Positions 1 to 32,000 of a stretch of 32,000 nucleotides of DNA are shown in pieces. How positions within the stretch are numbered: the first letter of the stretch is position 1; every line of letters begins with the position of its first letter. A program made the position numbers and the translations under genes. The notes beneath the pieces were generated by a model, which worked only from the letters and a program-made list of their open reading frames with translations, did no database searches and was not told the DNA's origin. Origin of the DNA: Thermococcus sp. JdFR-02 (GTDB taxonomy: Archaea > Methanobacteriota_B > Thermococci > Thermococcales > Thermococcaceae); the NCBI GenBank assembly GCA_002009975.1, contig MTLP01000028.1, positions 24,546 through 56,545 on the forward strand. The letters are read 5' to 3'.

Positions 1-1274
1 GAGAGCCTTTGGAGATTACATACGATTATTCTGAGGTTAATGTTAGTGTGTGGAAAAGAAGGGAAAAAGGTGTCTGGAGATATAGAGAGCTTTTGCCAAA
101 AGTTAAGCAAATAATAACCCTAAAGGAAGGGGGAACACCTTTAGTTAGGGCAAAGATTGGGGAGGAGTTAAAACTCAACGTTTTTATTAAAGATGAAACG
201 AGAAACCCTACTGGCTCTTTTAGGGATAGACTTGTTACAGTTGCGGTTTCTTATGGTTTGGATTTTGTGGAAAATGGCTTTATTGTTGCAAGTGATGGAA
301 ATGCTGCAGCATCTCTAGCTGCTTATTCAGCAAGGGCTGGAAAGGAATCCTTTGTTGTTGTTCCAAGGAGGGTAGATAAGGGGAAGCTCATACAGATGAT
401 TGCTTTTGGAGCAAAGATAATTCGCTATGGCGAGAGCGTTGATGAGTGTATAGATTATGCAAAAGAGTTAGCCAAGCTTAATGGTCTTTATGATATAACG
501 CCAGAAAACAATATCATCGGTTTAGAGGGACAGAAAACGATTGCTTTTGAGCTTTGGGAAGAGTTGAATCCTACTCATGTTATAGTTCCTACTGGGAGTG
601 GAAGCAACTTGTACAGTATTTACAAGGGATTTAGAGAACTCTTAAAGCTTGACTTAATTGACGAGCTTCCAAAACTCATTGCAGTTCAAACAGAAAAATG
701 TTCTCCGATAGCAAGTGAGATTTTGGGAACTAAAGCTAAAAGGGAATTTACAAAAGCTTTAGGATTGTACGTTAAAGACCCAATAAATAAGGAGAGAGCT
801 GTAAAAGCTGTAAAAGAAAGCAAGGGAACTGCGGTTCTTGTTAGGGAGGATGAACTTGATATGGGGGAGAGGCTTTTAGCAAAAGAGGGCGTTTTTGCAG
901 AATACGCTTCTTCAGTTGTGATTCCGGCATTAATTAAGCTTAATGGAGAGGGATATTTTGAAAAGGATGATAAAATCGCTTTAATAGTTACCAGCTCTGG
1001 ATTAAAGGGATATTATATTGAAGCAGAAAGGGAAAGATTCTCAATTGGTGGAACAAAGCTGGAAATCCTAAAACTGCTGAAAGAAAAAGAACGCTATGGC
1101 TATGAGATCTGGGAAAACTTAGAGAAGCCTTTAAAGTATCAAGCCATCTATCAACACATAAAGGAGCTTGAAAGTTTAGGATTGATAGAAGAGGCGTACA
1201 CAAAGGGAAGGAGGATTTACTATAAGCTGACTGAGAAGGGTAGAAGGGTTTTAGAGAACTTTGAGGAAATTTAG
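1..1274 (+). CDS. Threonine-synthase-like (fold-type II PLP) protein with a C-terminal PadR/ArsR-like winged-helix domain; 5' partial
   Basis: The frame is open to the window edge (no stop upstream of the TTG at 9). ThrC/CysK-type blocks are present: FIKDETRNPTGSF-R-DR, ASDGNAAASLAAYSARAG and VPTGSGSN (phosphate loop). The C-terminal 75 aa (KLEILKLLKEKERYGYEIWENL...YQHIKELESLGLIEE...YYKLTEKG) match a wHTH pattern. Confidence 0.8.
   Translation, partial: EPLEITYDYSEVNVSVWKRREKGVWRYRELLPKVKQIITLKEGGTPLVRAKIGEELKLNVFIKDETRNPTGSFRDRLVTVAVSYGLDFVENGFIVASDGNAAASLAAYSARAGKESFVVVPRRVDKGKLIQMIAFGAKIIRYGESVDECIDYAKELAKLNGLYDITPENNIIGLEGQKTIAFELWEELNPTHVIVPTGSGSNLYSIYKGFRELLKLDLIDELPKLIAVQTEKCSPIASEILGTKAKREFTKALGLYVKDPINKERAVKAVKESKGTAVLVREDELDMGERLLAKEGVFAEYASSVVIPALIKLNGEGYFEKDDKIALIVTSSGLKGYYIEAERERFSIGGTKLEILKLLKEKERYGYEIWENLEKPLKYQAIYQHIKELESLGLIEEAYTKGRRIYYKLTEKGRRVLENFEEI
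1047..1271 (+). other. Winged helix-turn-helix (PadR/ArsR-like) domain at the C-terminus of the ThrC-like protein
   Basis: Pattern 'RYGYEIW...L......YQHIKELESLGLIE....GRRIYYKLTEKGR' is typical of PadR-like wHTH recognition helix plus wing. Confidence 0.6.
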
Positions 1275-2021: not shown

Positions 2022-2118
2022 TTTCCCACCATAGCTAAGTTGCACTTTGTATTAATAAGGCAATCGCTTCGGAAGGCTTTAGTAATTTAAATATACAACA
2101 GCAATTGTGGTGACTAAA

Positions 2119-2610
2119 ATGAAACTCAAACGCAAGCTAATCGAGTTTATGGTGAGGCATGATCTAATACCTGCAAGAATCAAATGGGAGAAAAGTGCAA
2201 ATGGTGTTGGCAGGCTTTTCAATGATGTTTTTCACATGCTTAGCAAAGAGGATAGGGGAAAATTAGGAGAGCTAATGTACAAATGGGGTGTAAACGATGC
2301 AGATAGAATTGTTGAGATGCTGGAAATAGAGAGAGATTTGCACGGATGTGCAGTTGCATTAATGGCTACGAATGGTATTTTCGGGATAAAGAGTCATATA
2401 GTAAAGGAAAGTGATAACGAAATAATAATTCATGTGACAAAATGCTTATGGAAAGATAAGGAAGGTTGGACACCTGAAGTCTGTGCATCAATTGAAAGAT
2501 ATGAGATTGGACTGATACATGGGATAAACAAGAATGTTAGATATTATTGCACCAAAAGAAGAAGTAAAGGCGATAAGGTATGTGAGGCAATCTTGAAATA
2601 TCAACAATGA
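2119..2610 (+). CDS. Hypothetical Cys-containing protein (about 163 aa)
   Basis: ORF 2107..2610. The ATG at 2119 is about 25 nt downstream of the ATTTAAATAT box (2085..2094), suggesting a leaderless mRNA. Scattered Cys residues (HGC, TKCLW, EVCAS, YYC, KVCE). It weakly resembles ATC-hydrolase-like small proteins; this is not verified. Confidence 0.55.
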   Translation: MKLKRKLIEFMVRHDLIPARIKWEKSANGVGRLFNDVFHMLSKEDRGKLGELMYKWGVNDADRIVEMLEIERDLHGCAVALMATNGIFGIKSHIVKESDNEIIIHVTKCLWKDKEGWTPEVCASIERYEIGLIHGINKNVRYYCTKRRSKGDKVCEAILKYQQ

Positions 2611-3487: not shown

Positions 3488-3498
3488 AGATACCACCA

Positions 3499-3512
3499 AA
3501 AATATAAACACT
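3499..3512. promoter_or_regulatory. Shared A/T box in a 43-bp divergent intergenic region (Zn-ribbon operon to the left, cbiB to the right)
   Basis: AAAAATATAAACAC reads as a TATA-like element on both strands. It is about 20-30 nt from the ATG at 3531 (leaderless cbiB mRNA likely) and upstream of the GGTGGT RBS of the minus-strand gene. Confidence 0.4.
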
Positions 3513-3530
3513 TTGGACATTTTATCCTTT

Positions 3531-4388
3531 ATGTTTGAGTTGGTTTTAGCATTAATATGGGATTTGATCTTAGGTGAACCTCCAGCTAAGCTTCACCCAA
3601 CTGTTTGGTTTGGTAGATTAATTGGATTCTTTGATGAAGCGTATAAAAGAAAGAATGCTTTTTTAGACTTCTTTGCTGGAGCTTTTGTCTCTCTAATCAT
3701 TATAATCTTTGCTTTTTTGCTTTCAAAAGTTCCAAATTTCTTGCCTTTTCCCCTAAGCTCCCTTTTGAGCATTTATCTTCTTAAAAGCTCTTTTGCAGTT
3801 AAAAGCTTAGCCCAGCACATAAAAAACACGATTAGAGAGGACATTCAAGAACAGAGAAAATACGTAAGCTGGATTGTAAGTAGAGATGTTAAAGGATTGG
3901 ATAGAGCTCATTTAAATTCAGCTGCAATAGAAAGCTTAGCCGAAAACATAGTTGATAGCATACTTTCTCCTCTCTTTTACTACCTTCTCTTCGGCTTAAG
4001 CGGTGCTTTGGTTTATAGAGCAATAAACACAATGGACGCAATGATAGGTTACAAAGACGAGAAGTACTTCTATTTTGGGAAATTTATCGCAAGATTGGAT
4101 GATTTGGCTAATTTTATTCCAGCCCGTTTAGCTGTGATTTTATTCCTACCTTTCAGTCCTAGGAGAGTTTGGCATCACTATCGCTTAGCAAAGTTTAAAG
4201 TCAATGCTGATAAACCAATCGCATGCATGAGCGCGGTTTTAGGTGTTTGGTTAGAAAAGATAGGGGTTTATAAGTTTCCGGGAAGAGAGCCAACTTTGGA
4301 AGACATAAGGAGGGCTTTAAAGATTTATTGGATTGTGGTTGGAGAGTGGGTTTTAATTTTGCTTATTTTTAGTTGTCTCACGTCATAA
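3531..4388 (+). CDS. cbiB: Adenosylcobinamide-phosphate synthase CbiB (CobD family membrane protein)
   Basis: N-terminal [20 protein letters not shown] signature, a multi-TM profile, and 'DAMIGYK' and '[14 protein letters not shown]' blocks. The ATG at 3531 is chosen because the track start at 3444 would overlap the divergent gene. Confidence 0.85.
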
Positions 4389-4449
4389 ATCTTGCACAAA
4401 AATTATTTAACAATTTTCACAATTTCAAACTTAATTGGAGTGACTTGAA

Positions 4450-5436
4450 ATGCTAAAGCCCATAAATTTCAAAGCTCATCATGGAGGCGCAAGGGAAGAA
4501 AGACTCTTAGATTTTTCCGCTTCAATTAATCCCTACAAGCCACATTGGTTAAATGATATGCTTGAAAGGACTAGAGCCTTAAGCAACAGATACATCTATT
4601 GGGAGAGCCTTGAGGAAGAGCTTTCAAATTTGATTGGTGAAGAAGTAACAATTACAGCGGGAATAACGGAAGCGTTGTATTTGATTGGAATCTTGGCTTT
4701 AAGGGAATGGCGAAAGGCGATAATTCCTAAGCACACTTACGAGGAGTATGAGAGAATTGCAAGAGTATTTGGTGCTGAGATAATAAAGGCTTCAAATGAG
4801 CCTGAAAAATTAGCAAATTTTGTTGAAAGGCAAAGTGTCGTTTTCTTTTGCAATCCAAATAATCCAGATGGAAAATTTTACACACCAAAAGAACTCAAGC
4901 CTTTAATCCAAGCTGTTGAAGATGAAAAAGCATTATTGGTTTTAGATGAAGCCTTCATAGACTTTGTTAGAAATGCAAAAACTCCTGAAGGAGAGAACAT
5001 TGTAAAGCTCAGAACCTTCACGAAGAGCTATGGAATGCCCGGAATTAGGGTTGGCTATGTAGTTGGGTATAGTGAAGCTTTCAAGAGCGTTAGAATGCCT
5101 TGGAGCATTGGCGCTTTAGGTTACGCTTTTTTAGAGTTCTTGATCAAAGATGAATTCCACTTTTTAAAAGAAACTATGCCTTTAATTTGGAAGGAAAAAG
5201 AGCGCATGGAAAGGGAGCTTAACGTCAAAAGTGATGCAAACTTTTTTGTAAAAAATGTTGGAAATGCAGGGAAAGCTGTGAAGTTCCTAAAGCAAAGGGG
5301 AATTTTAGTTAGAGATTGCTCATCTTTTGATTTGCCAGAGCTTATTAGGTTTAGCGTAAGAAAGAGAAATGAGAATGACAAGCTTATTGGAGCGTTAAAA
5401 GAGTATCTTGGTGAAGGAGATGATTCTTCGATTTGA
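4450..5436 (+). CDS. cobD: L-threonine-O-3-phosphate decarboxylase CobD (class I/II aminotransferase fold)
   Basis: N-terminal HGG motif followed by DFSASINPY, NPNNPDG, and FTKSYGMPGIRVGY (PLP lysine present). GGAGTGA RBS before the ATG at 4450. Immediately downstream of cbiB. Confidence 0.8.
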   Translation: MLKPINFKAHHGGAREERLLDFSASINPYKPHWLNDMLERTRALSNRYIYWESLEEELSNLIGEEVTITAGITEALYLIGILALREWRKAIIPKHTYEEYERIARVFGAEIIKASNEPEKLANFVERQSVVFFCNPNNPDGKFYTPKELKPLIQAVEDEKALLVLDEAFIDFVRNAKTPEGENIVKLRTFTKSYGMPGIRVGYVVGYSEAFKSVRMPWSIGALGYAFLEFLIKDEFHFLKETMPLIWKEKERMERELNVKSDANFFVKNVGNAGKAVKFLKQRGILVRDCSSFDLPELIRFSVRKRNENDKLIGALKEYLGEGDDSSI

Positions 5437-7403: not shown

Positions 7404-8795
7404 CTAAGCAGTTTCTTCTGATTTTTCGATTATCCTCTTCATCCAAGAACCTTTCAAAAACCATGCTAATCCTACACCAGCGGCGATGAAGTTACTCAAG
7501 CCCATTCCTAAAAAGACTCCAGTGGAAGATTTCATCACTATGTACCCAAAAATATAGCTTAGAGGAATTCTCAATCCCCAAAGACGGAACATATCTATAA
7601 CCATAGACTTCTTTGTATGTCCAGCGCTTCTAAAAACATTTGTAACTACCATAAAAACTCCATCGAATACAGGAACCGAAATGAGAAAATACTTCAAAAC
7701 AATCCTGCTTTCTTCTATTACTGCTGGATCATCTAAAAAGAGCTTAAATACTGGAACTCTGAATATTGCAAGCAAAAGAACAGCAACACTTGCTATAGTG
7801 AAGTTAATCAGCATTGTTCTCTCAGCTATCTTTTTAGCTCTCTCATACTTTTCTGCTCCTATATTTTGAGCTATCATCGTCCCCATAGCCATGGAAATTC
7901 CACGTGCTACGTTAGCTAAAAAGTTAACCAAACGGGTCGTGATTGTGTAAGCTGCATACGTAACATCTCCAAAGCCGAAGATAATTCTTGTTAAAACAAC
8001 AAAACCAAAGCTGTTAGCTGAGGAGCCTATACTTGAAGGTAAACCAACTTTAAAGATTTTCTGGTAAAAATCAAAATCTGGTCTGAGGGTATCTCTCGTT
8101 AAGTGTAATCCAACTTTTCCAGTTAAAAGGAGATAAGCACCTATAACTGAGCCTATGCTATTTGAAAATATTGTTGCCAACGCTGCCCCTGTAACTTCCA
8201 ATTTTGGAAAGCCAAAGAGCCCGAAAATGAGTATTGGGTCTAAGACCATGTTTAGCCCGACAGTGAGGAAGCTTATTTTTACTGGTGTTTTTGTGTCCCC
8301 AACTGCCCTCATAAGGAAGCTGAAGGAGAAGAAAGTGAATGCAAAGGGTATTCCAGCAAATATTACCCTAAGATACCCTAAGGCATAGGGATAAACAGTT
8401 GGAGTTACTTTCATAAAATTTAGTGCATAGGGAGATATCCAATAACCTACAATTGCAACGATAGATGCAAATATAAGCATGAGTGAATACAATGCGCCAG
8501 CGGCTTTGTTGGCTTTTTTATATTCTTCAGCTCCTATGTATTGTCCAACGAAGGCAAATCCTGCAGTTGTAAATCCCATACCCAAGCTCATCAAAGTCCC
8601 AATTAGTGGCCATGCTGTCCCTGGAGCTGATAATGCTTCTCTTCCAAGTTTGCCTAACCAAAATGTGTCGGTGATGTTATAAACCACCTGAATTAGGTTA
8701 TTTACTATTAAAGGTCCCGCTAATCGGAGTAGTGTTCTCTCTATGCCCCCGCTGACTATCTCCTCACGCATTTTTTGGATTTTTTCATCTTTCAT
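7404..8795 (-). CDS. MATE family efflux transporter (paralog 1)
   Basis: 12-TM profile. The N-terminal 'LAGPLIVNNLIQVVYNITDTFWLGKLG' block is typical of MATE/NorM-DinF proteins. The ATG at 8795 is preferred over the TTG at 8801. Confidence 0.88.
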   Translation of the reverse strand: MKDEKIQKMREEIVSGGIERTLLRLAGPLIVNNLIQVVYNITDTFWLGKLGREALSAPGTAWPLIGTLMSLGMGFTTAGFAFVGQYIGAEEYKKANKAAGALYSLMLIFASIVAIVGYWISPYALNFMKVTPTVYPYALGYLRVIFAGIPFAFTFFSFSFLMRAVGDTKTPVKISFLTVGLNMVLDPILIFGLFGFPKLEVTGAALATIFSNSIGSVIGAYLLLTGKVGLHLTRDTLRPDFDFYQKIFKVGLPSSIGSSANSFGFVVLTRIIFGFGDVTYAAYTITTRLVNFLANVARGISMAMGTMIAQNIGAEKYERAKKIAERTMLINFTIASVAVLLLAIFRVPVFKLFLDDPAVIEESRIVLKYFLISVPVFDGVFMVVTNVFRSAGHTKKSMVIDMFRLWGLRIPLSYIFGYIVMKSSTGVFLGMGLSNFIAAGVGLAWFLKGSWMKRIIEKSEETA

Positions 8796-8827
8796 GCTCA
8801 ATCAGACAAAAATCGAAATGTTATGAT

Positions 8828-10204
8828 TTAAGTGTTGTGGTCTATGATGCGCCTCATCCAAGTACCGCGGAAGAACCAGGCAAGAGCTATCAAAGCAGTG
8901 AGAAGATTGCTTAATCCCATACCAAGCCACACGCCAATAGTACTGTTAAAAAAGATGCCCAAAGTATATGCAAGGGGTATTCTTAGAGCCCAGAGCCTTA
9001 GGATTCCAAGGATCATAGCCTTTTTGGTGTGTCCTGCGCTTTGGAAGACGTTACTTACAGCTGCGAGTATTCCAAAGAATGGCAGCGAGAATGCGAAGTA
9101 CTTTATGAATCTCGCACTTTCAGCCAGAACAGCCTTATCCTTTATGAAAAAGCCAAAGATTTGAGGTCTGAAAATAACAACGAGGGCTGTTCCAATGCTT
9201 AGAATTATGAAGTTGGTAAACATTGCTTTTTCGGCTATCTCCTTTGCTCTCTCATACTTCTCCGCTCCAACGTTTTGACCTACCATGGTTCCCATGGCTT
9301 GACTTATGCCGTTGGCAAAAGCAAACATAAAGTTCGTTAATCTGTTAGCTATCGTGTATGTTGCAAAGGCTACAGTTCCATAGGCATAGATTATCCTTGT
9401 GAGGACCACGAATCCAAATGCATCTGTAGAGAAGCCAACACTTGAAGGCAATCCCACTTTAAAGATTCGCTTATAGAATCCCCAGTCAGGTTTTAGGGTT
9501 TTGAGTGTGAGATGTATTCCAACTTTGCCCTTGAAGAGCAGATATCCGCCTATGATGGAACCAATGCTGTTCGAAAACATAGTTGCCACTGCAGCCCCAA
9601 TGACGCCCATTCTTGGGAAGCCAAGCCATCCAAAGATTAGTATCGGGTCTAGAATTATGTTAAGAACGATGGTAAACATGTTTATCTTGACTGGTGTTTT
9701 AGTGTCCCCAACAGCCCTGAGAAGGAAGTTAAAGGCAAAGAGTGTGAAGGAAAAAGGAATTCCAATGAAGATTATTCTTATGTAACTTAGCGCGTAGGGA
9801 TACACTTCAGGGGTAACGTTCATAAAGTCAAGAGCAAATGGAGCTATTATTATTCCAAAGAGAGCAACAAAAGCAGAGAACAACATCATCATGGAGTATA
9901 ATGCACCGGCAGATCTGTTTGCTTCATCGTACTTCTTTGCACCTACATATTGACTCACAAAGGCAAATCCCGCAGTTGTGAATCCCATTCCAAGACTCAT
10001 AAAGAACCATACTAGAGGCCAAGATGTACCAGGGGCAGAAAGTTCTTCTCTCCCAAGCTTGCCTAACCAAAATGTATCAGTTAAGTTGTAGAGAACTTGA
10101 ACCATATTGTTGATGATTAGGGGATATGCCAGTCTAAGGAGGGTCTTTTCTATGCTGCCTTCAATGATTTCCTTGCGCATCACTTGAATTTTCTCTCCAT
10201 TCAT
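8828..10204 (-). CDS. MATE family efflux transporter (paralog 2, tandem duplicate)
   Basis: Collinear with, and clearly homologous to, the downstream MATE gene along its whole length (for example TDTFWLGKLGRE(A/E)LSAPGT and AVGDTKTPVKI). The ATG at 10204 is preferred over the TTG at 10213. Confidence 0.88.
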   Translation of the reverse strand: MNGEKIQVMRKEIIEGSIEKTLLRLAYPLIINNMVQVLYNLTDTFWLGKLGREELSAPGTSWPLVWFFMSLGMGFTTAGFAFVSQYVGAKKYDEANRSAGALYSMMMLFSAFVALFGIIIAPFALDFMNVTPEVYPYALSYIRIIFIGIPFSFTLFAFNFLLRAVGDTKTPVKINMFTIVLNIILDPILIFGWLGFPRMGVIGAAVATMFSNSIGSIIGGYLLFKGKVGIHLTLKTLKPDWGFYKRIFKVGLPSSVGFSTDAFGFVVLTRIIYAYGTVAFATYTIANRLTNFMFAFANGISQAMGTMVGQNVGAEKYERAKEIAEKAMFTNFIILSIGTALVVIFRPQIFGFFIKDKAVLAESARFIKYFAFSLPFFGILAAVSNVFQSAGHTKKAMILGILRLWALRIPLAYTLGIFFNSTIGVWLGMGLSNLLTALIALAWFFRGTWMRRIIDHNT

Positions 10205-10339
10205 AACAATCAAATCCCAATCGAAACGTTATTATAAAAAGTTTATCGTGGACAAATTATCCTAGATGACGAGAGGAGAATTTTTCTTTCTCGTTTTATG
10301 CTAACAATTCTCAATTAGTAGTTTATTCGAAAGAATAGC

Positions 10340-10409
10340 ACGGAAGACAGCAAGTTATGAAAACAAATTAAACAAAAGGAGAAAAGTTAAGAGACCTCAG
10401 AAGAGGTCT
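10340..10409 (-). terminator. ppsA terminator region: GC-rich hairpin over the stop codon followed by oligo-T tracts
   Basis: Minus-strand RNA AGACCUC-UUCU-GAGGUCU (10392..10409), then CTTAACTTTTCTCCTTTTGTTTAATTTGTTTTC. Archaeal termination typically uses T-tracts. Confidence 0.5.
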
Positions 10410-12763
10410 TCCTCGTCCTTAAAGAGTTGCCTTCTTGCTGCTTCAAGCATGAGCTTTCTCTCTTCTTGGGCAACTACTTGTCTAATTAGTTGTACTGCAT
10501 CTGGGTTAGCTGAGATACTGTCAATGCCAAGTCTTACTAAAATTCTCGCCATCTTTGGATCGCTTCCAGCTTGTCCACAGATGCTTGTCTCAAATCCGTA
10601 CTTCTTAGCTACCTTGATGACGTACTTGATTAATCTAACAACTGCTGGGTGTGTCTCATCGTAGAGTTTTGCAACTCTCTCGTTGTCTCTATCTAATGCT
10701 AAGGTGTATTGTGTTAGGTCGTTTGTACCAAAGCTTATGAAGTCGATTCCTTCCTTAGCCAAGTCTTCGATGATTAAAGCAGCTGCTGGAACCTCAATCA
10801 TGACACCAAAGGCAACATCCTTGTGTGGCTCTAAGCCAACCTCTCTTGCGATCCTCTTAGCCTCTCTAAGCTCTTCAACTCTGCTTACTAATGGAAGCAT
10901 TACACCGACGTTGTTATAACCTTCTTCGACGACCTTCTTGATTGCTGTGAACTCTGCCTTAAGCAATTCTGGTTGATCAATGCTTCTTCTAATTCCTCTC
11001 CATCCAAGCATTGGGTTTCTTTCGTCTGGCTCGTCTTCTCCACCTGGCATTTCCTTGAACTCGTTTGTTGGGGCATCTAATGTTCTATACCAGACTGGTC
11101 TTGGATAGAATGCAGCTGCAACGGTTCTAATTCCATCGGCTAATCTCTCAACAAGCTCATCAAATTTACCTTCCTTAATGAACTTGATTGGGTGTTGTCC
11201 AATTGTTAAGATCATGTGCTCTGCTCTTAGCAATCCAACACCATCTGCACCTGTGGCAGCTGCTCTCTCAGCTACCTCTGGCATTGAAACGTTAACTTTA
11301 ATTAGTGTTCCAGTTACTAATGGAGCACCTGCAACTACTGCTCCTGCAGCGGCTTTTTCTTCCTCTTTCTTCTCGACCAAGCTCTTTACAATACCCTTGT
11401 AAACTAAACCTCTTCCACCATCAACTGTTACATAGTCACCAGTCTTGAGTACTTTTGTTGCTTCTTTTGTACCAACTACACATGGAATTCCAAGCTCTCT
11501 TGAAACGATAGCTGCGTGGCTTGTTCTTCCACCTTCGTCTGTAATGATTGCTGCTGCTCTCTTCATTGCTGGAACCATATCTGGGTTTGTCATTGTTGTG
11601 ACTAAAATATCTCCTTCCTTAACCTTGTCAATTTCATCAGCTTCGAAGATAACGACAACTTTACCAGCACCGATACCTGGTGAAGCACCTAATCCCTTAA
11701 GAATAATTTCAGCTTCTTCAGTCATTTCAGCAGCCTCCTCAGTTGTGACCTCTTTTAATGTGGTAACAGGTCTTGATTGGACAATGTAAAGCTTACCATC
11801 ATCCTTATCATAAGCCCACTCAATATCTTGTGGCCATCCATAGTGCTCCTCAATCTTTTGTCCAATCTTAGCAACCTCAATAACTTGCTCATCTGTGAGA
11901 CATTGCTTCTCAACCCACTCTGGACCTAGGAAGTCAGCAACTTTAACGTAAATTGTTCCCTTTCCAGTCTCTGGGTTCCTAACAACCATAACTTCCTTCT
12001 TGGCGATGAATTTCTCCTTAATTGTCCATGTCTTCTTGTCAACTATGTACTCATCTGGGGTGACTGAACCGCTAACAACTGCCTCACCTAATCCCCAAGA
12101 AGCGTTGATCATTATCTCATCTCTATTGTTGTTAACTGGGTTAGCTGTGAACATAACACCGCTCTTTTCACTGTTAACCATCTTTTGAACAACAGCACTT
12201 AAGTAAACCTTTGTGTGGTCAAATCCTTGCTTCTCTCTATAGAATGTAGCTCTTGCTGTCCAAAGTGAAGCCCAACACTTCTTAACTTTCTCAATAACAT
12301 CATCTGCACCAAGAACATCTAAATAGGTTTCTTGTTGTCCAGCAAATGAAGCCTCTGGTAAGTCCTCAGCTGTTGCAGAGCTTCTAACTGCAACGTAGAC
12401 TGCATCTTTGTTAAACCTTGCACTTAGCTCTTTGTAAGCTTCTCTGATTTCCTTTTCAATCTCTTCGGGCATTGGAAGTGAAATAATCTTTTCTCTAATT
12501 TTAGCGGTGTTCTCTTGCAATTGCTTTGAGTCATCAACGTTTGTTTCTTTAATAACGTCCATAATCCACTCTTGCAAAGTTCTTCCATCTTCGACTTTAA
12601 CATTCTCGACGAAGTATTTGTATGCTTCAGCAGTAACACAGAATCCTGGTGGAACTGGAATTCCAACACTTGTCATTTCTCCAAGGTTTGCGCCCTTTCC
12701 ACCAACGAGTGGAACGTCTGTTTTTCTCAATTCCTCAAACCACTTTATGAATTTGTATGCCAT
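10397..12763 (-). CDS. ppsA: Phosphoenolpyruvate synthase (pyruvate, water dikinase)
   Basis: MAYKFIKWFEEL...VPLVGGKGANLGEM N-terminus, the phosphohistidine region TDEGGRTSHAAIVSRELGIPCVVG, and the C-terminal PEP-utilising TIM barrel (FGTNDLTQY). GGAGGG RBS. 788 aa. Confidence 0.97.
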   Translation of the reverse strand: MAYKFIKWFEELRKTDVPLVGGKGANLGEMTSVGIPVPPGFCVTAEAYKYFVENVKVEDGRTLQEWIMDVIKETNVDDSKQLQENTAKIREKIISLPMPEEIEKEIREAYKELSARFNKDAVYVAVRSSATAEDLPEASFAGQQETYLDVLGADDVIEKVKKCWASLWTARATFYREKQGFDHTKVYLSAVVQKMVNSEKSGVMFTANPVNNNRDEIMINASWGLGEAVVSGSVTPDEYIVDKKTWTIKEKFIAKKEVMVVRNPETGKGTIYVKVADFLGPEWVEKQCLTDEQVIEVAKIGQKIEEHYGWPQDIEWAYDKDDGKLYIVQSRPVTTLKEVTTEEAAEMTEEAEIILKGLGASPGIGAGKVVVIFEADEIDKVKEGDILVTTMTNPDMVPAMKRAAAIITDEGGRTSHAAIVSRELGIPCVVGTKEATKVLKTGDYVTVDGGRGLVYKGIVKSLVEKKEEEKAAAGAVVAGAPLVTGTLIKVNVSMPEVAERAAATGADGVGLLRAEHMILTIGQHPIKFIKEGKFDELVERLADGIRTVAAAFYPRPVWYRTLDAPTNEFKEMPGGEDEPDERNPMLGWRGIRRSIDQPELLKAEFTAIKKVVEEGYNNVGVMLPLVSRVEELREAKRIAREVGLEPHKDVAFGVMIEVPAAALIIEDLAKEGIDFISFGTNDLTQYTLALDRDNERVAKLYDETHPAVVRLIKYVIKVAKKYGFETSICGQAGSDPKMARILVRLGIDSISANPDAVQLIRQVVAQEERKLMLEAARRQLFKDEEDLF

Positions 12764-19865: not shown

Positions 19866-22800
19866 ATGAGTAGAAAAACTCTAAGCGTACTTATTATATC
19901 TTTAATGCTCTTTTCAGTAGTTCCAGTGGCTCTAGTAAGTGCGGGGGTTACTGATTCCGAACCCCAAGTATCTCATAAGGTTACAAAATTAGCTATTATT
20001 TCAAAAGAGCCAGAAACAGCAAAAGATCCAATGGAAAAAATTGAACCTAAATTGCTTGACATACTAAAAGGCAAAGTAGAAGTTTATGTCCCAGAAGTGA
20101 ATGGGAAAAAACTGCTACCTATACATATAGTTACAACTTCTGACATTTCTTCAAAGTTGAGAGGTGTGGAGGTAGTTGGCAAGAGTGAAATTGCGGGAAT
20201 GACAGTATATTTAGCGTTGGTTCCAATTAAAGAGGAAAGTGAGAGGATAATATTAAAGATTGCGTCCATTCCTGAAGTTGAAGCAGTTACAAGAACGAAT
20301 CCCTTTGAACCTATTGGAGACGTTAAGCCTATTGAAGAAAAAGAGAACCGAGAATTTGTTAAGATTCCAAAATCAAAGTTTTCTAAGTTAATAGAATTAA
20401 AAGGAGAATGGTTCCCAGAAGAGGTTAATGGTTATAGAGTAGTTAAACTGACAGATCTTCTTCCAGAGAAACTAAAAGAGCTACAGGATCAAAGTCTTGC
20501 AAGAAGAGGGGAGATAACTTTAGAAAAAAGAGAGGTTGAGGTTAAAAACCCAATTCAACCACAAGACTATTTTGCGATCTACCATCATGGAGCATTAAAT
20601 ACTTGGGTAGATTTGGGCATTACAGGAGCTGGGATCAATGTGGCAATAATTGATAGTGGCGTTGACTTTGGAAATCCAGATTTGCAAGATGCTTATGCTG
20701 TTGAAATGAATCCAGAAAGCCCGTATTATGGATGGCCAATAGCCTTTAGCGGACACTCAATGATTTGGTATCTTTTGATGAACATGACATTCCCAGATTA
20801 TATCTACTCCTGGTATGCTAACACTTCAAGATATGTCTTATCTCCAATAATAATGGAAGGAAACTTTAGCATAGGTTATAAAGGAAACTTCACCACAGTA
20901 TTCACTTCTATGGACTTGGCAAACGTTATTGATGATTATGAGAGAGCAGACATAATAAACGCAACACTTGACTGGATTGGAAATGTAAGCACTATTCTCT
21001 TGGTCGATGATGATGGAGAAGATCTTCTAGAAGAATTTTATGTAAATGCTTTAGACATCCTTGGAGTGAACTATACATATTACGAAGTCCCATATGGCAA
21101 GATAGGTCCCAACTCTACCGTAATGAGCAATTACGACTTGGTTATGTGGTTTACTGGAGCAACTTATAAAGACACCTTAACGGTTGAAGACATTGGAAAT
21201 CTAACAGAGTATTTAGATAATGGTGGAAAATTATGGTTCATTAGTCAGGACTACCTATATGACAAAGATGATGGTCCAATTTACACCAACAGGCATGTAA
21301 TATACAAGCAGGAGAATGCTACTGCACCACCAGAAGGTAATAGTACAGAACACTACTTCAATGTGACAGCTAGCGCTCCGATTCTTAGGGTTGTTACAAC
21401 AAGCGATTATAGCAACTTAGATATTGATATTGAGCTCTATTACTATAATGAAACAAGTGGAGAATGGGAATTTATTGACGATTCAGATGGCTTAGATTCA
21501 ATGGAAGAAATTATCATTGAAAATCCACTAATAGGTCAGTACATGGTTGATGTATATAGCTTTGAAAATCCAGAATATGACAATGCTACGTACACTATAA
21601 AAGTTGAAACTGCTAACATATCAGGATACTTTACTTATGAATATCTACATGTTGGGAATGTCTCCATAGAGGATATGCCAGTACCTACAGTGCTTGAAGA
21701 CTTTAATGGAGCAAAATATCGCGCAGGTGAGGTGTATTATGGAATTTACGAGAGTCCTACGGACATATGGGCAGACTATATAGTTCCCGACGAAAATGCT
21801 ACAGTCTTATTAAGAGGATACACTGCTTATGCAACTAATGGATCTACCATCTACCTTGTTAAATTGCCATTAAATAATAACTTAGAGGTTCCAACACAAA
21901 GCGAAGAAGTCCATTTAGGATTACATCCAGATTTAGCACTTTGGTTCTACTGGTATGGAGGATGGGTATTGGTAACAGATCCAAATAATGCAACGGTTTA
22001 TGACACAGTCTATGTGGACCTTACTCCAGTATGGGGAGTTCCAGATTTCAATGAGGATGTGGGACATACTAAAAATAATCCAGTGGTTCAATTAGACTTC
22101 TGGGATGCATTTAACGATGAATTTGGTCAAGATGGATACGCTGACCTTTCAGGTGGACTAATTTACTTCATAGCAGATGGACAAACACCAATACCCTATG
22201 CAGATATAGTTGCTTCTAGATGGGGACTTAACCTACCAATTCCAGAAAATGGTGAGTTAGTGGCGTTTATGATAGGTACGGACTGGATTGGAGGAGGAGA
22301 TCACGGTACATTATGTGCAGCTGCAGTTGGAGCAAGAGGAAGAACGTTTATGGGGTTAACATTTGGTACAGCAATTGAGGCAAAAATAATAGCTGAAGGT
22401 TCTCTCTATTCAGGTGGAAGTTGGTTTGACTACGTTTACTTTGCTGTTCAAGGTTACGATGGAGTCCCAGGCACAGGAGATGAAGCATTTGTTGTAAGCA
22501 ATAGCTATGGAAACTCCTACGTAATTAACAAAGGCTACTACTATGCAGATAGATTTATTGATTTTGTAACAACTCTCTATACTCCATGGGTAACGTTCCT
22601 CTTTGCTGCAGGCAATGGCGGTCCAGGTTATGGAACAGTTACAAGTGAGGGAGCTTCTCCAGGAGTAATTACTGTAGGAGCTGCAGTTGAATATGGATAT
22701 AGAAACTTATTTGGATACGATGGTGGTCCTTTAGGATACGAATTTGCAAATTATGGGGACGTTGTGGAGTTCTCTAACAAAGGTCCAAACGCATTGGGGC

Positions 22801-25800
22801 AAGTTGATCCTGACATTTTAGCAGTGGGTGCATTTGCACTGGGAAGTTTACCTGTTAACAGCATAGGAGATGGATTCTGGGCAAGCACTTTGTGGTCTGG
22901 AACAAGTCTAGCAACTCCAATGGCTGCTGGTATCACGGCTTTGGTTTACCAGGCATACTATCTAGCACATGGAACTTACCCAACAAGCCAAGAAGTTAGG
23001 GAAATCTTAATGAGTACAGCAGATAATGTAAATCACGATGTCTTTAGCCAAGGTGCAGGATTCCTAAATGCTTATAGAGCCGTTATGGCGGCATTAAACC
23101 AAGAGGGAATAGTTGTATCTCCATCACTATGGCAAGCTGGAGACTATAACGGACAAGAGTATAGGGCATTTGCAAAGATCATGTATCCTGGAGAAAGTGA
23201 CTCACAAGAGTTCGTAGTTAAAAACATGAATCAAGCTGCAGATAAAAATGTAAGCGTTTCAGCAGAGATTTTCGAAAAGATAGGAGAGACCACATTTGAG
23301 GTTTCTGTGGGAGGTTTGTATAGAATAGACCAATATATCCCAGATGATGCAGAATTAATGAAAGTCACAATGTACATTCCATACGAGCAATTCGATGAGG
23401 ATTGGGACTATTCATATGACACATACTTATATTTCGAGCTCTTTGCATGGACAGATACAAATGGTAATGGCACAGTCGAGTTCTGGTATGAGACAAATAG
23501 GATACAACATGCAGCAAAAGCTGGAACTACAGCATCAACAATGCTTGGAAATCCATGGGATAAATTCACAGATGGATTGCTCTTGAGAATTAGGGCTGGA
23601 GGCTATAACAATATAGTGAAGCTTGAGTTCTACAAGAGGGTTCCATGGGAGTGGGTTACAATTGATAATTCAAGCTTAATAGTTGCAGCTAATGGAAGTG
23701 CTACCTTCACAGCAACATTAACGGTTCCAGAAGATACACCATTTGGAGTATATGAAGGTGCTATTTACTTGAAATATGATGGAACCGAAACTACAATCCC
23801 AATAAGCGTTGTTGTTGCTTCACCAACGCCAGAATTTGAATTTGGTGGCGATATAAACGCAACAGGACTTTATGATAATTCAAATGTCTACGGCTATATG
23901 GACTGGTGGTGGAGATACGAAAGTGGAGACTGGAGATTGTTCTACTTTGACATAGGGGATGAGTACAGTATTGGTGACAACACTTACGTAGTAGCAGATG
24001 TCTCATGGGATGGATCCCTCCCAACTGATATTGACTTACATCTCCTAGGACCTGAAGAAGATGACTGGAGCTATTACTTCCCCGAGATTTATGGTCCATA
24101 CGCACTTAATGTAATTGCATCAAGTAAGGACACCTACATGGGGTCTGGAATATTCCAATTTGCAACTTCAAGCGGTGGAACAAGAGAGATAATAGCAGGG
24201 AAGGCACAAAATGGTTTGCACGCTTTATGGCTACACAATGTCCTCTTTGATGGAAATGCAAGCTTTAGAACATTCTATGGAAGAGTAGGTCTGCTTAATG
24301 TATATCCAAATGAGTGGAATGAATATATAACCCAAGAAAATGGAACAATGCAGTTCCTAGTTTCAAGAACAATAGACTTTGGAAATATCACAGCAAGTGC
24401 TAAGTCAGCAATTACTGAAGGATACAAGGATGTTTTGGCTCCTGATACGGGAGATAGCCATTATTATGCATTTAATGTCACCACAGGATCTGTGAGATTG
24501 CATGTTAAACTAACCAGCATTTACGACGATTTAGCTGGAGTAGACTTAGATTTGTATGTGTACTACAATGGACAATTGATTGGTTCTTCATTGTCTCCAA
24601 CTTCAGACGAGGAAGTTGTTGTGGATGACCCAGAGCCAGGAGAGTACATTATTGAGGTTTATTCATGGAATAATCCAGTTCCAGGAGAAGCTACATATGA
24701 CCTAGAAATATACGATTTTGGTGGAGAGAAGTTAGAAGTGTTGGACATTACGGAAATTGGGACTGAAGAGTACCAAATTGACCTAGCGTATCATGATATA
24801 CCTGTAAATGAGAGTACATTAGGAACTGAAGTGAAAGGCTTAGTATTCATAGGCTCAGACCTAGCGCCAAAGTTAGTTACGGTTCCAGTAACTCTTATTG
24901 TTGGCAACATCAGCTCAAGAGCAGATACGAGAATAGTTAATGTGATCTTAGAAAGTGAGGAAGATGTAATCAAAGTTGGAAGTACCGTTAGTATAAAAGC
25001 TACTATAGTCAATGAAGGTCCAGCAATTGCTTCAAATGCTGAAGTTGTGCTCTTTAAGGACAATGTTCCAATAGATAGGGTAGTGTTAGGAGACTTTAAC
25101 ATCAGTGAAGTTTATGAAGTGGTATTCAACGTTACTATAACGGACGACATAGCTCATGAATACAAAGTAGTTGTTAGCTCTGACAATGACTACAATATGG
25201 GCAACAACTACAACATAATGAACATTAAGGGTATGGAAGTTGAAGAATTCTTGTTCTCTGAAACAGGAAATGTCACAATAAACGCAGTCTTTGATGGAAT
25301 TGCGGAGGTTACTACGGTAGAGAAGAAGGAGAGAAAGATTGAGGTTACTGTGGATGGAACTCACGGTGCTATAGTTACATTAATGTTTAACCTACCACGT
25401 GACTTACACTACTACGATGTCATAATCTATGATGCAGATTTGATAAGTAGTAGAATAATAAGGGTAGCAACTTCGACAATTCTTGAAGTTAAAGTGCAAC
25501 TACATTCACCAGCACAAATTACCGTTGAATACATGACAGCTTCAGAAGCATTATACCAAATAGGAACCCTCTGGTATGTAGTCTACAACAAGAAACTTGA
25601 TACGTTTGAAGAACTCTACAATAAAGCTGTTGAACTTGGAATTGATAATGAAACGATTCAAGAGGCTCTACATCACAAAGAAATCGCTGAGCAATATTAT
25701 GAAGAAGCGGGCAAATTCGGTCCTATAATAAGGAATCTAACAAATCCAAAAGTGCTTCCATATTTGAGAAAAGCGTATATTCACATGAAGAGAGCAGTAG

Positions 25801-25823
25801 AAATTTTGACAGAAGCTTTGTAA
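19866..25823 (+). CDS. Secreted giant subtilisin-like (S8, pyrolysin-like) serine protease, 1985 aa
   Basis: Signal peptide MSRKTLSVLIISLMLFSVVPVALVSAG. Catalytic motifs are NVAIID(263)SGVD, GGGDH(813)GTLCAAAV, AAGN(917)GGPG and SGTS(1014)LATPMAAG. There are two PPC-like domains, a CARDB-like domain and a helical C-terminal tail. Confidence 0.92.
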   Translation: MSRKTLSVLIISLMLFSVVPVALVSAGVTDSEPQVSHKVTKLAIISKEPETAKDPMEKIEPKLLDILKGKVEVYVPEVNGKKLLPIHIVTTSDISSKLRGVEVVGKSEIAGMTVYLALVPIKEESERIILKIASIPEVEAVTRTNPFEPIGDVKPIEEKENREFVKIPKSKFSKLIELKGEWFPEEVNGYRVVKLTDLLPEKLKELQDQSLARRGEITLEKREVEVKNPIQPQDYFAIYHHGALNTWVDLGITGAGINVAIIDSGVDFGNPDLQDAYAVEMNPESPYYGWPIAFSGHSMIWYLLMNMTFPDYIYSWYANTSRYVLSPIIMEGNFSIGYKGNFTTVFTSMDLANVIDDYERADIINATLDWIGNVSTILLVDDDGEDLLEEFYVNALDILGVNYTYYEVPYGKIGPNSTVMSNYDLVMWFTGATYKDTLTVEDIGNLTEYLDNGGKLWFISQDYLYDKDDGPIYTNRHVIYKQENATAPPEGNSTEHYFNVTASAPILRVVTTSDYSNLDIDIELYYYNETSGEWEFIDDSDGLDSMEEIIIENPLIGQYMVDVYSFENPEYDNATYTIKVETANISGYFTYEYLHVGNVSIEDMPVPTVLEDFNGAKYRAGEVYYGIYESPTDIWADYIVPDENATVLLRGYTAYATNGSTIYLVKLPLNNNLEVPTQSEEVHLGLHPDLALWFYWYGGWVLVTDPNNATVYDTVYVDLTPVWGVPDFNEDVGHTKNNPVVQLDFWDAFNDEFGQDGYADLSGGLIYFIADGQTPIPYADIVASRWGLNLPIPENGELVAFMIGTDWIGGGDHGTLCAAAVGARGRTFMGLTFGTAIEAKIIAEGSLYSGGSWFDYVYFAVQGYDGVPGTGDEAFVVSNSYGNSYVINKGYYYADRFIDFVTTLYTPWVTFLFAAGNGGPGYGTVTSEGASPGVITVGAAVEYGYRNLFGYDGGPLGYEFANYGDVVEFSNKGPNALGQVDPDILAVGAFALGSLPVNSIGDGFWASTLWSGTSLATPMAAGITALVYQAYYLAHGTYPTSQEVREILMSTADNVNHDVFSQGAGFLNAYRAVMAALNQEGIVVSPSLWQAGDYNGQEYRAFAKIMYPGESDSQEFVVKNMNQAADKNVSVSAEIFEKIGETTFEVSVGGLYRIDQYIPDDAELMKVTMYIPYEQFDEDWDYSYDTYLYFELFAWTDTNGNGTVEFWYETNRIQHAAKAGTTASTMLGNPWDKFTDGLLLRIRAGGYNNIVKLEFYKRVPWEWVTIDNSSLIVAANGSATFTATLTVPEDTPFGVYEGAIYLKYDGTETTIPISVVVASPTPEFEFGGDINATGLYDNSNVYGYMDWWWRYESGDWRLFYFDIGDEYSIGDNTYVVADVSWDGSLPTDIDLHLLGPEEDDWSYYFPEIYGPYALNVIASSKDTYMGSGIFQFATSSGGTREIIAGKAQNGLHALWLHNVLFDGNASFRTFYGRVGLLNVYPNEWNEYITQENGTMQFLVSRTIDFGNITASAKSAITEGYKDVLAPDTGDSHYYAFNVTTGSVRLHVKLTSIYDDLAGVDLDLYVYYNGQLIGSSLSPTSDEEVVVDDPEPGEYIIEVYSWNNPVPGEATYDLEIYDFGGEKLEVLDITEIGTEEYQIDLAYHDIPVNESTLGTEVKGLVFIGSDLAPKLVTVPVTLIVGNISSRADTRIVNVILESEEDVIKVGSTVSIKATIVNEGPAIASNAEVVLFKDNVPIDRVVLGDFNISEVYEVVFNVTITDDIAHEYKVVVSSDNDYNMGNNYNIMNIKGMEVEEFLFSETGNVTINAVFDGIAEVTTVEKKERKIEVTVDGTHGAIVTLMFNLPRDLHYYDVIIYDADLISSRIIRVATSTILEVKVQLHSPAQITVEYMTASEALYQIGTLWYVVYNKKLDTFEELYNKAVELGIDNETIQEALHHKEIAEQYYEEAGKFGPIIRNLTNPKVLPYLRKAYIHMKRAVEILTEAL
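20766..22298 (+). other. Insertion of about 500-550 aa between the catalytic Asp and His of the S8 domain
   Basis: D263 codon at 20652..20654 and H813 codon at 22302..22304. The insert contains an alpha/beta module (TILLVDDDGE...YDLVMWFTG...GGKLWFISQD, about 20960..21270) and a PPC-like beta module (HYFNVTA...DIDIELYYY...GQYMVDVYSF...YTIKVE, about 21348..21608). Confidence 0.75.
24459..24719 (+). other. Second PPC (pre-peptidase C-terminal)-like domain
   Basis: HYYAFNVTTGSVRLHVKL...GVDLDLYVYYNGQLIG...PGEYIIEVYSW...ATYDLEIYDF. Confidence 0.6.
24930..25215 (+). other. CARDB-like (cell-adhesion-related, Ig-like) domain
   Basis: VGSTVSIKATIVNEGPAIASNAEVVLFKDNVPIDRVVLGDFNISEVYEVVFNVTI...DNDYNMGNN. 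Confidence 0.5.
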
Positions 25824-30921: not shown

Positions 30922-32000
30922 TTAGCATCTTGACCCTTTTAACCCTTTTATTGGTATAAGGCTGAGGAAAACAAAAAGAGATGCTAATGCAAAGTTTGTT
31001 TGAAAGCCGAAGTGCTGAACTATAAATCCACTTGCAAAGCTTCCTATAATGAATCCGCTTGAATTAACCAAGTTGAAAACTCCCATGACAGTTCCTTTTT
31101 CATTTTCTCTAGCTAATTTCCCAATTATTGAAGTTGTGGATATGCCAATGAAGGACCATGAGTAGCCAGCCAGGAAATATGAGAGTATGGCAATTATAAA
31201 TGAGGCTACACTGTTGAGAAACACTCCTACAACTAGAAGGCTAATTCCAAAAAATCTCAAAATTAGACCTTCTCTGAGAACTTTGAATCCTTCTTTTTCC
31301 TTGAGCATAATTCCAACCCTTGTGTACATATATGCCGAAATTGATGAGTTTATTATTGCAGCTAAATAAACGTGGGTTTTTTCAAATCCCCTGAAGATAA
31401 GAAATACTGGGTATTGAGAGAAATATAGACCTGTGGCAATCCAAAAAAGCATAGATGAGGTATAAAATCTTTTAAATCTTGAAAGGCTTTTTAGGGCGTT
31501 GGGTATATGGAGCATGAAGTTTGGCATGTAGCGCATCTTTTCTGTAACATAGTTAACGAAGACTCCAATACTTTGTCTGTTGACATAAATTGGGGCTTCT
31601 CTAATCCATGAAAGACTTAGGATTATGGAGGGAATATTTAACAATGCAAATAAAATGAAAAGCTGTTTGATAGTCAAGATTCTTGAAAGGGCAAGCCCTA
31701 AGGATAATCCCAGCACCCATCCCCAGCCCCCAATTTCATTAAATTTCCCAATTCCATAGTCCCAGTTGAGCTTTCTTAAGCTCCTTAGGATGAGAACTAT
31801 TGAAACGGAAAGGGTTGTTGCTAAAAAGAAGGTATAGATAGAATTGAGGGCTATAACGCCTTCTACACTGTTTATGAATGGGAGTAACAATAGAAATAGG
31901 GTAACGCTCATGAATCCTGTTATTATGAAAACTTTTCTCTTCAAAGTTCTATCTGAAACTCTTCCCCAAAAGAGAGCACCAAGCATTGATGATAAGCTCC
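30922..32000 (-). CDS. MFS-type transporter (5' partial, continues beyond the window)
   Basis: 'GALFWGRVSDRTLKRK' (MFS loop 2-3 motif G..sDR.GR(K/R)) and about 10 TM segments. The ORF is open at the window end. Its stop is 6 nt upstream of the DUF364 start, so the two are a likely operon. Confidence 0.75.
   Translation of the reverse strand, partial: SLSSMLGALFWGRVSDRTLKRKVFIITGFMSVTLFLLLLPFINSVEGVIALNSIYTFFLATTLSVSIVLILRSLRKLNWDYGIGKFNEIGGWGWVLGLSLGLALSRILTIKQLFILFALLNIPSIILSLSWIREAPIYVNRQSIGVFVNYVTEKMRYMPNFMLHIPNALKSLSRFKRFYTSSMLFWIATGLYFSQYPVFLIFRGFEKTHVYLAAIINSSISAYMYTRVGIMLKEKEGFKVLREGLILRFFGISLLVVGVFLNSVASFIIAILSYFLAGYSWSFIGISTTSIIGKLARENEKGTVMGVFNLVNSSGFIIGSFASGFIVQHFGFQTNFALASLFVFLSLIPIKGLKGSRC

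Follow-up and report, generated by a model that had tools for sequence, protein, structure and literature searches.

In the MocR regulators, among them PdxR and GabR, an effector domain derived from an enzyme dependent on pyridoxal 5'-phosphate (PLP) is combined with a DNA-binding winged helix-turn-helix (wHTH), and the aminotransferase domain keeps the lysine which binds PLP. In Archaea, enzyme domain and wHTH are joined in ThiR, the thiamine regulator with a ThiN domain. RbkR, an archaeal riboflavin kinase with a wHTH, regulates genes for biosynthesis and transport (PMC5397151). PLP is the ligand sensed by PdxR, which has pdxST, pdxK and the importer pdxU under its control, and MocR regulators are absent from Archaea (PMC5320631). 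Here we analyzed a stretch of 32,000 nt from Thermococcus sp. JdFR-02 (contig MTLP01000028.1, positions 24,546 to 56,545), referred to as the window. A gene at its left edge encodes a threonine synthase (ThrC)-like domain which lacks the Schiff-base lysine and is fused to a C-terminal PadR-type wHTH. It is quite probable that this fused protein is a ligand-sensing DNA-binding regulator.

The fused family follows the same logic as the MocR regulators PdxR and GabR. These, however, combine an N-terminal GntR wHTH with a fold-type I aminotransferase, whereas the fused family has a C-terminal PadR-type wHTH, a fold-type II domain and no lysine. Judged by its sequence, the family is an analogue of MocR, GabR and PdxR and not a member. 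RbkR is similar in being an enzyme-derived vitamin regulator of Archaea, and the fold search with the C-terminal domain gave its wHTH as one of the matches. It is built on a different scaffold and is an active kinase, whereas the fused family appears catalytically dead. ThrC itself (2d1f, 2zsj, 1v7c, 6nmx) has the same fold and about 32% identity to the window protein. Both share a PRK08197-type zinc ribbon, the PLP-phosphate loop, the asparagine loop and the TGxGLK motif. The fused family differs from ThrC by the missing Schiff-base lysine, the replaced residues of the substrate-phosphate loop and the added linker and wHTH. As to PadR, LmrR and AspA, the C-terminal domain passed the Pfam PadR threshold and has the topology of a wHTH with a C-terminal helix. 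Classical PadR proteins are small and stand-alone with the ligand site at the dimer interface, whereas here the wHTH sits on a putative sensor domain of 340 residues.

The features of the gene, all on the plus strand of the window, were as follows:

1..1274, plus: 3' 1.27 kb of the ThrC-like fusion gene (codons 3..1271, stop 1272..1274)
114..992, plus: fold-type II PLP-enzyme (ThrC-like) domain, the proposed sensor (residues 38-330; Pfam PALP, E 2e-66)
204..230, plus: motif NPTGSFRDR in place of the ThrC Schiff-base motif NPTGSFKDR (residues 68-76)
222..224, plus: Arg74, codon AGG, in place of the Schiff-base lysine (from the sequence and column statistics)
288..314, plus: ASDGNAAAS, the asparagine loop (ASTGNTSAS in ThrC), Gly and Asn kept, both Thr replaced
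498..539, plus: TPENNIIGLEGQKT, aligned to ThrC NSVNPxRIEGQKT, with N, S and R of the loop replaced (from the alignment)
585..608, plus: VPTGSGSN, glycine-rich loop for the PLP phosphate, retained (residues 195-202)
987..1010, plus: VTSSGLKG, counterpart of ThrC TGxGLKD, retained (from family column conservation)
1002..1043, plus: flexible inter-domain linker (residues 334-347), the only segment with a predicted local distance difference test (pLDDT) score below 50
1053..1265, plus: PadR-type wHTH (residues 351-421), three helices, two strands and a helix

In total, 423 residues are coded by 3..1271 (frame 3), followed by the stop codon TAG. The reading frame is open from the window edge; the 5' end of the gene lies beyond it, and the start codon is not represented in 3..1271. 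The full-length homologue P0001 (445 aa, 94% identity to the window protein) carried about 22 additional N-terminal residues, beginning with MVRCSKCGRGYSSLIPPKCICGEPLEI, which form a CxxC...CxC (Cys4) zinc ribbon.

The window protein matched ThrC sequences of the Protein Data Bank (PDB) with E values down to 8e-48. With TIGR00260 (thrC) it scored 161.6 bits and thereby stayed under the cut-off of 167.1. The AlphaFold model, based on an alignment of 74 sequences (pLDDT 89.7), consisted of a ThrC-like body, the disordered linker and a separate domain with the H-H-H-E-E-H order of secondary structure (DSSP). The body superposed on the ThrC structures 6nmx, 2d1f and 1v7c (Foldseek, target template modelling scores 0.82-0.85). 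Pfam PadR (PF03551) matched residues 355-418 (E 2.3e-9, 37.6 bits, cut-off 27), and sequence matches of the wHTH in the PDB were AspA (4rs8) and PadR (9qbc). The isolated wHTH, modelled from the single sequence (pLDDT 61.6), gave weak fold matches to AF1382, LmrR, ArsR and PadR-like regulators. Its recognition helix is likely located around YQAIYQHIKEL. T351, K352, Y365, Y367, W370, Q384 and H385 were invariant across the family.

These results confirm in every element the observation made in the initial annotation of this stretch, which had recognized a ThrC-like fold-type II domain, the arginine codon AGG in the motif NPTGSFRDR, the retained VPTGSGSN and ASDGN blocks and the C-terminal PadR-like wHTH. 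At the position of Arg74 the structures 2d1f and 2zsj, whose NPTGSFKDR is aligned to this motif, have lysine.

Lysine loss and possession of the wHTH go tightly together. An exhaustive HMMER search of 1.84 billion cluster representatives (50% identity) yielded 150 proteins, which were aligned together with two ThrC sequences from the PDB, and the presence of the wHTH was scored with a hidden Markov model (HMM) of the C-terminal domain. Among 78 proteins with the wHTH only two had lysine. The other 76 carried different residues (L in 19, R in 18, I in 17, V in 6, T in 5, M in 4, F in 2, and singletons). All but one of the 72 proteins without the wHTH had the lysine (Fisher p = 2e-39). The exception with arginine, P0139, looks like a truncated fusion. 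Two word-indexed searches gave the same picture, since 238 of 240 fused homologues (best 120 each) were without lysine.

The PadR domain was present in all of the best 120 cluster representatives and arginine in 118 of them. Because of this prevalence, Arg74 is neither a sequencing error nor a peculiarity of the strain. The Arg-type representatives originated from Thermococcus, Pyrococcus, Bathyarchaeia, Odinarchaeota and metagenome-assembled genomes labelled 'Methanomicrobia'. Lysine was found among these 120 in Palaeococcus alone (P0019 of Palaeococcus pacificus, and P0024). The second of these word-indexed searches, seeded with an Ile-type protein (best 120), revealed a sister clade of about 495 aa without a single lysine (I in 91, V in 14, L in 9, M in 3, T in 2, S in 1). 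Its hosts were Bathyarchaeia, Nitrososphaerales and Thor-, Prometh-, Odin- and Sifarchaeia, and a genome scan added Thermoplasmata, Methanomethylicota and Nitrosopumilales. The arginine is thus the replacement of a Thermococcales/Bathyarchaeia clade (here named R clade), and I, V, L or M are those of the sister clade in Asgard lineages, Nitrososphaerota and Thermoplasmata (here named I/L clade). Since the replacement differs between the clades, selection appears to act for 'not lysine' and not for arginine as such.

The expectation that orthologues would share the missing lysine therefore held for the closest relatives and failed in Palaeococcus. The arginine seen first stands for the R clade and is one of several solutions, and the host range includes the Thermococcales without being limited to them. 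Four fused proteins with lysine (P0019, P0024, P0133 and P0134) nevertheless kept the family substitutions (ASDGNS, LIGIEGQKT). Their lysine may be a reversion, as a change from AGR to AAR would need one transition, and these proteins may bind PLP covalently.

Comparison of 80 fused with 72 canonical proteins showed that the motifs of the PLP site were equally conserved in both groups, with 84-100% in the fused ones. This concerned N68, P69, D75 and R76 (98% each), G99 (95%), N100 (85%), K178 (95%), G198 (94%), G200 (100%), E300 (96%), T330 (96%), G333 (98%) and K335 (94%). As arginine replaces the lysine, an internal aldimine is impossible. A pocket which is kept under purifying selection without the catalytic residue points to a ligand sensor.

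The positions specific for threonine synthase were lost. The ThrC segment NSVNPxR-IEGQKT reads TPENNIIG-LEGQKT in the window protein, so that N, S and R are missing, and ASTGNT reads ASDGNA (ASDGNAAA at residues 96-103). In the ThrC structures of T. thermophilus, the phosphate of O-phosphohomoserine is bound by the corresponding positions, which are N, S and R of NSxNPxR and the Thr of ASTGNT. The fold-type II fold was found by both PALP and Foldseek, and Arg74 is aligned to the Schiff-base lysine of 2d1f and 2zsj. The window protein is very probably not a threonine synthase.

In NCBI, UniRef and JGI sources the proteins are named 'threonine synthase' or 'pyridoxal-phosphate dependent enzyme' throughout. 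With NCBIfam NF004170 (PRK05638) the window protein scored 743.4 bits (cut-off 421) over profile positions 24-442 of 442, including the wHTH. NF004170 is typed as 'equivalog: threonine synthase' even though its members are without the catalytic lysine. Because it models exactly this fused family, its name is not independent evidence. On the sequence data the protein is a member of NF004170, and the name 'threonine synthase' is contradicted by the missing lysine, the TIGR00260 score and the phosphate loop. Full-text literature, in a coverage which leaves out most subscription journals, contained no description of the fused family and no archaeal B6-responsive regulator. The proposed novelty holds in this respect, with the restriction that the complete architecture had already been modelled by NF004170 under the enzyme name.

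The genomic context of the relatives points to transport. S components of energy-coupling factor (ECF) transporters typically act as vitamin importers. Using an S-component HMM, 16 of the 23 distinct loci outside the Thermococcales were found to have a PF07155 S component (E down to 1e-32) next to the fused gene. As a negative control served the canonical ThrC loci, mostly bacterial, which dominated the genome-contig scan due to the generic peptide patterns; here an S component was found in none of 64 (Fisher p = 2e-12). In the I/L clade the S gene and the regulator gene mostly diverge; in the R clade the S gene follows immediately downstream on the same strand. Searched against the PDB, the S-component profile had chain S of 4hzu as its sole match (E 8.8e-28) and did not match the structures of RibU, FolT, ThiT, BioY and PanT that are deposited there as well. 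Chain S of 4hzu is HmpT of L. brevis, for which carriage of pyridoxamine was demonstrated by mass spectrometry (PMC4860826). PdxU and PdxU2/HmpT are known ECF importers of B6, both belonging to COG4720/PF07155 (PMC9997740).

An extended arrangement was seen in one locus (L010:1396-5918). Here the S component was longer at its N-terminus by about 150 residues, which include extra hydrophobic segments, and was accompanied by genes for an ECF T component (CbiQ) and a duplicated ABC ATPase. Genes for an aminotransferase, a HAD hydrolase and a CysK-like PALP protein were located just downstream of the regulator.

Candidate operators were found in both clades. Nine loci of the I/L clade have the perfect palindrome GCCTATATATAGGC, with ATATATAA-N7 in front of it, at a distance of 10-25 nt upstream of the regulator gene. 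Eight of these loci belonged to Thor-, Prometh- or Bathyarchaeia, Nitrososphaerota or Nitrosopumilales, and one (L009) was a metagenome contig. Five sites were exact and four had 1-2 mismatches, and about 700 kb of other fetched DNA contained one more match. A second copy with one mismatch, GCCTATATATAAGC, was present in L009 (10859-10872), about 67 nt upstream of a gene of the DJ-1 family (10202-10792, minus strand). This gene is a possible additional member of the regulon.

In the R clade a 22-bp palindrome, TAGTnnAGTTryAACTnnACTA with the consensus TAGTATAGTTAYAACTATACTA, was located directly upstream of the start of the S component. A blind metagenome scan with the 22-mer TAGTNNAGTNNNAACTNTACTA returned at least 80 loci. 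About 36 of the 80 returned loci had an R-type fused gene, an S component or the two together next to the site, and all 27 complete regulators in the blind-scan loci were R-type. Where both genes were on the contig, the site lay between the 3' end of the regulator and the S gene; on contigs that were cut, it adjoined one of the two. In 28 of 31 loci with an S open reading frame (ORF), a distance of 1-39 nt separated the end of the site from the first possible start codon downstream, and in the other three the ORF call overlapped the palindrome. The other matches, considered as regulon members, were rejected as unrelated AT-rich sites (LexA-like repressor, ParA, internalin and others), so that no extra regulon members were found among the metagenome matches of the 22-mer. 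Dimeric repressor sites classically take the form of a palindrome over the core promoter beside a wHTH gene, and we infer that the family protein binds the palindromes described here. Regulation of the ECF S component by the family is likely.

The Thermococcales differ from their relatives in gene order. In Thermococcus (L001:1403-5381) and Pyrococcus (L003:5410-9323) a proteasome subunit gene is followed by aCPSF1/FttA (KH and beta-CASP domains) and the fusion gene; the partner genes correspond to DNA upstream of the window's left edge. In both loci the fusion gene starts 4-31 nt after aCPSF1/FttA, with a GGTG ribosome-binding site in front of it and no promoter of its own in evidence. The short gap and the ribosome-binding site suggest co-transcription, probably in a psmB-fttA operon with the fusion gene in third place. 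The recognition helix A-I/V-YQH-I/L-KEL, the pocket motifs and Arg74 are common to the R-type proteins of Thermococcales and Bathyarchaeia (about 45% identity). From the shared recognition helix and pocket, a similar effector and a related operator elsewhere in the genome would be expected.

No B6 genes were present within the 32-kb window, and no target gene of the protein was identified there. The initial annotation had suggested the nearby promoters at 2046..2118 and 3488..3530 for binding assays; neither family palindrome was present in them. The matches of the palindrome scan in the window were all coding and due to chance (20129, 21602 and 23110 in the 1985-aa ORF, 31833 in the ORF 30922..31986). 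Upstream of the Thermococcus and Pyrococcus genes and of psmB no convincing inverted repeat was found; the sole pair was in L003 upstream of psmB, with arms of 11 nt and a spacing of 22 nt. A profile search for homologues of the S component gave only Bathyarchaeia among the best 120 matches.

On balance we favor the reading of the family as enzyme-derived ligand sensors and transcription regulators. The analogy to the logic of MocR/GabR, drawn before from the single sequence, gains support from the coupling of lysine loss and wHTH, the conserved pocket and the importer and palindrome in the relatives. In the proposed mechanism, the lysine-less PLP-fold domain would act as a reversible sensor of a small molecule, connected by the flexible linker to the PadR-type wHTH. 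A dimer would bind a palindromic operator which overlaps the core promoter, and occupancy of the old PLP pocket would alter the affinity for DNA. As effector we predict a B6 vitamer in phosphorylated form, either PLP or pyridoxamine 5'-phosphate (PMP), held non-covalently. It is the most economical choice, because the PLP pocket is kept, a covalent tie is missing and a B6-type importer is adjoining. The controlled gene in most relatives outside the Thermococcales would be the PdxU2/HmpT-like S component, a B6-vitamer importer type, and the family would then be the counterpart in Archaea, by function, of PdxR in bacteria. For the Thermococcales, the window included, the gene seems to share a transcript with psmB and aCPSF1/FttA. 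The B6 effector is the weakest step of the argument, plausible to us without yet being probable. With the same caution, the family could be the missing archaeal B6 sensor and the first transcription factor of fold-type II, which would bind PLP or PMP reversibly and repress a PdxU2-type importer via the palindrome, with the Thermococcales protein encoded in the psmB-FttA operon and serving another regulon.

Several observations weigh against this reading. An S component was missing in 7 of the 23 loci outside the Thermococcales and, searched with its own HMM, in the 32-kb window, L001 and L003. Neither family palindrome was found convincingly in the window or the Thermococcales loci, even with mismatches and relaxed half-sites, and the Thermococcales protein could have a role unlike the one in its relatives. 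The palindrome of the I/L clade is TATA-like and could in part be a promoter element. The substrate assignment of the S component rests on one PDB homologue, its NCBIfam matches (TIGR04002, FolT family, RibU) were all below the cut-offs, and PF07155 includes riboflavin and hydroxymethylpyrimidine (HMP) transporters too. A gene of the AIRS/PurM superfamily (about 339 aa) was located right after the S gene in two loci (L005:10235-11251, L093:7315-8334). Furthermore, in Bathyarchaeia a lysine-bearing (K-type) ThrC without the wHTH was present beside the pair of R-type regulator and S component:

L024:147-1466, minus: K-type ThrC
L026:3499-4809, plus: K-type ThrC
L027:3917-5233, plus: K-type ThrC
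L094:483-1757, minus: K-type ThrC (TIGR00260 357.8 bits, above the cut-off)
L115:2399-3667, minus: K-type ThrC

These genes may be the source from which the regulator was duplicated, or members of the regulon. A genuine thrC so close to the regulator leaves room for an effector from the threonine pathway.

Four other explanations were weighed. The most conservative takes the protein for a functional threonine synthase with an additional C-terminal domain, as the databases name it. It can refer to the ThrC fold, the retained majority of PLP-site motifs and the equivalog-type match to NF004170 (743 bits against 421). We regard it as extremely improbable, since the lysine is gone in 76 of 78 fused proteins and replaced by the chemically unrelated R, I, L, V and M, the loop residues N, S and R are substituted and the TIGR00260 cut-off is missed. 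Moreover, the Bathyarchaeia have a separate K-type ThrC passing TIGR00260 beside the fused gene. To our knowledge, no fold-type II PLP enzyme works without its lysine, and the variation of this position from Arg to Ile, Leu, Val and Met between the clades disfavors a catalytic role there. Both points make a bifunctional enzyme-regulator, with non-covalent PLP or another lysine-free chemistry, very unlikely. Its attraction lies in the conserved pocket and in the archaeal precedent RbkR, an active enzyme fused to a wHTH (PMC5397151).

A sensor of the proposed kind could also respond to something other than B6, such as O-phosphohomoserine, threonine, phospho-amino acids or HMP phosphate (HMP-P), the S component importing the compound or a precursor. 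The scaffold is of ThrC descent, thrC is divergent beside the R-type regulator in the five Bathyarchaeia loci listed above, and HMP-P, a thiamine precursor, resembles PMP. HmpT was originally predicted to be an HMP transporter, yet the same protein, the sole structurally characterized relative of the S component, carries pyridoxamine (PMC4860826). The AIRS-family gene has ThiL-like similarity, which is no better than that to HypE and SelD, all of them below the NCBIfam cut-offs. Since conservation is lacking at the positions for the substrate phosphate but is seen in the PLP-phosphate loop and at the ring contacts, we consider a non-B6 effector rather unlikely. For the Thermococcales protein alone, recruitment to a job with the proteasome beta subunit or aCPSF1-FttA, for example as a constitutive nucleic-acid- or protein-binding factor, would agree with its position 4-31 nt after aCPSF1, the GGTG site, the lack of an evident promoter, and the missing S component and palindrome nearby. 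However, the pocket, Arg74 and recognition helix are those of the Bathyarchaeia R-type proteins, and the spacing of a housekeeping operon may merely provide constitutive expression of a regulator. Such a recruitment is therefore improbable.

The hosts of the family (Thermococcales, Bathyarchaeia, Asgard lineages, Nitrososphaerota, Thermoplasmata and Methanomethylicota) point to a widespread archaeal misannotation, spread by an NCBIfam equivalog. The ThrC label corrupts the reconstruction of amino-acid pathways and the prediction of auxotrophy in these Archaea, and if the B6-sensor reading is true, every public 'threonine synthase' annotation of the family is wrong. For Archaea, which are without MocR/PdxR, the fused family, the predicted operators and the PdxU2-like importer constitute a testable candidate for a B6 regulator. 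With regard to protein evolution, an enzyme with a covalent cofactor would have become a reversible sensor by loss of one residue, with Arg in one clade and Ile, Leu or Val in the other. The AIRS-family gene of L005 and L093 might, as a speculation, be a candidate for one of the alternative B6 kinases which are still to be found (PMC9997740).

Some further genes of the window were noted. Positions 2107-2610 (plus strand) contain an ORF of 167 aa with a weak, sub-threshold match to ATC_hydrolase. This ORF has a PgpA-like and a diphthamide-synthase-like gene as its two neighbors, and the L001 contig, although syntenic in other respects, does not have it. At 3522-5436 (plus strand) a CbiB/CobD gene (adenosylcobinamide-phosphate synthase family) is followed by a gene of the class I/II aminotransferase fold, which is suggestive of a cobamide salvage pair with the L-threonine-phosphate decarboxylase CobD. 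A phospho-threonine link of the fused protein via these neighbors was considered and rejected, as the arrangement is not conserved in Pyrococcus and the operator is absent. The ORF of 1985 aa at 19866-25823 (plus strand) encodes a secreted-looking protein, in the translation of which a serine motif of the subtilase type, GTSLATP, can be read. Two MatE paralogues (MATE efflux) of 465 and 461 aa lie in tandem at 7404-10213 on the minus strand.

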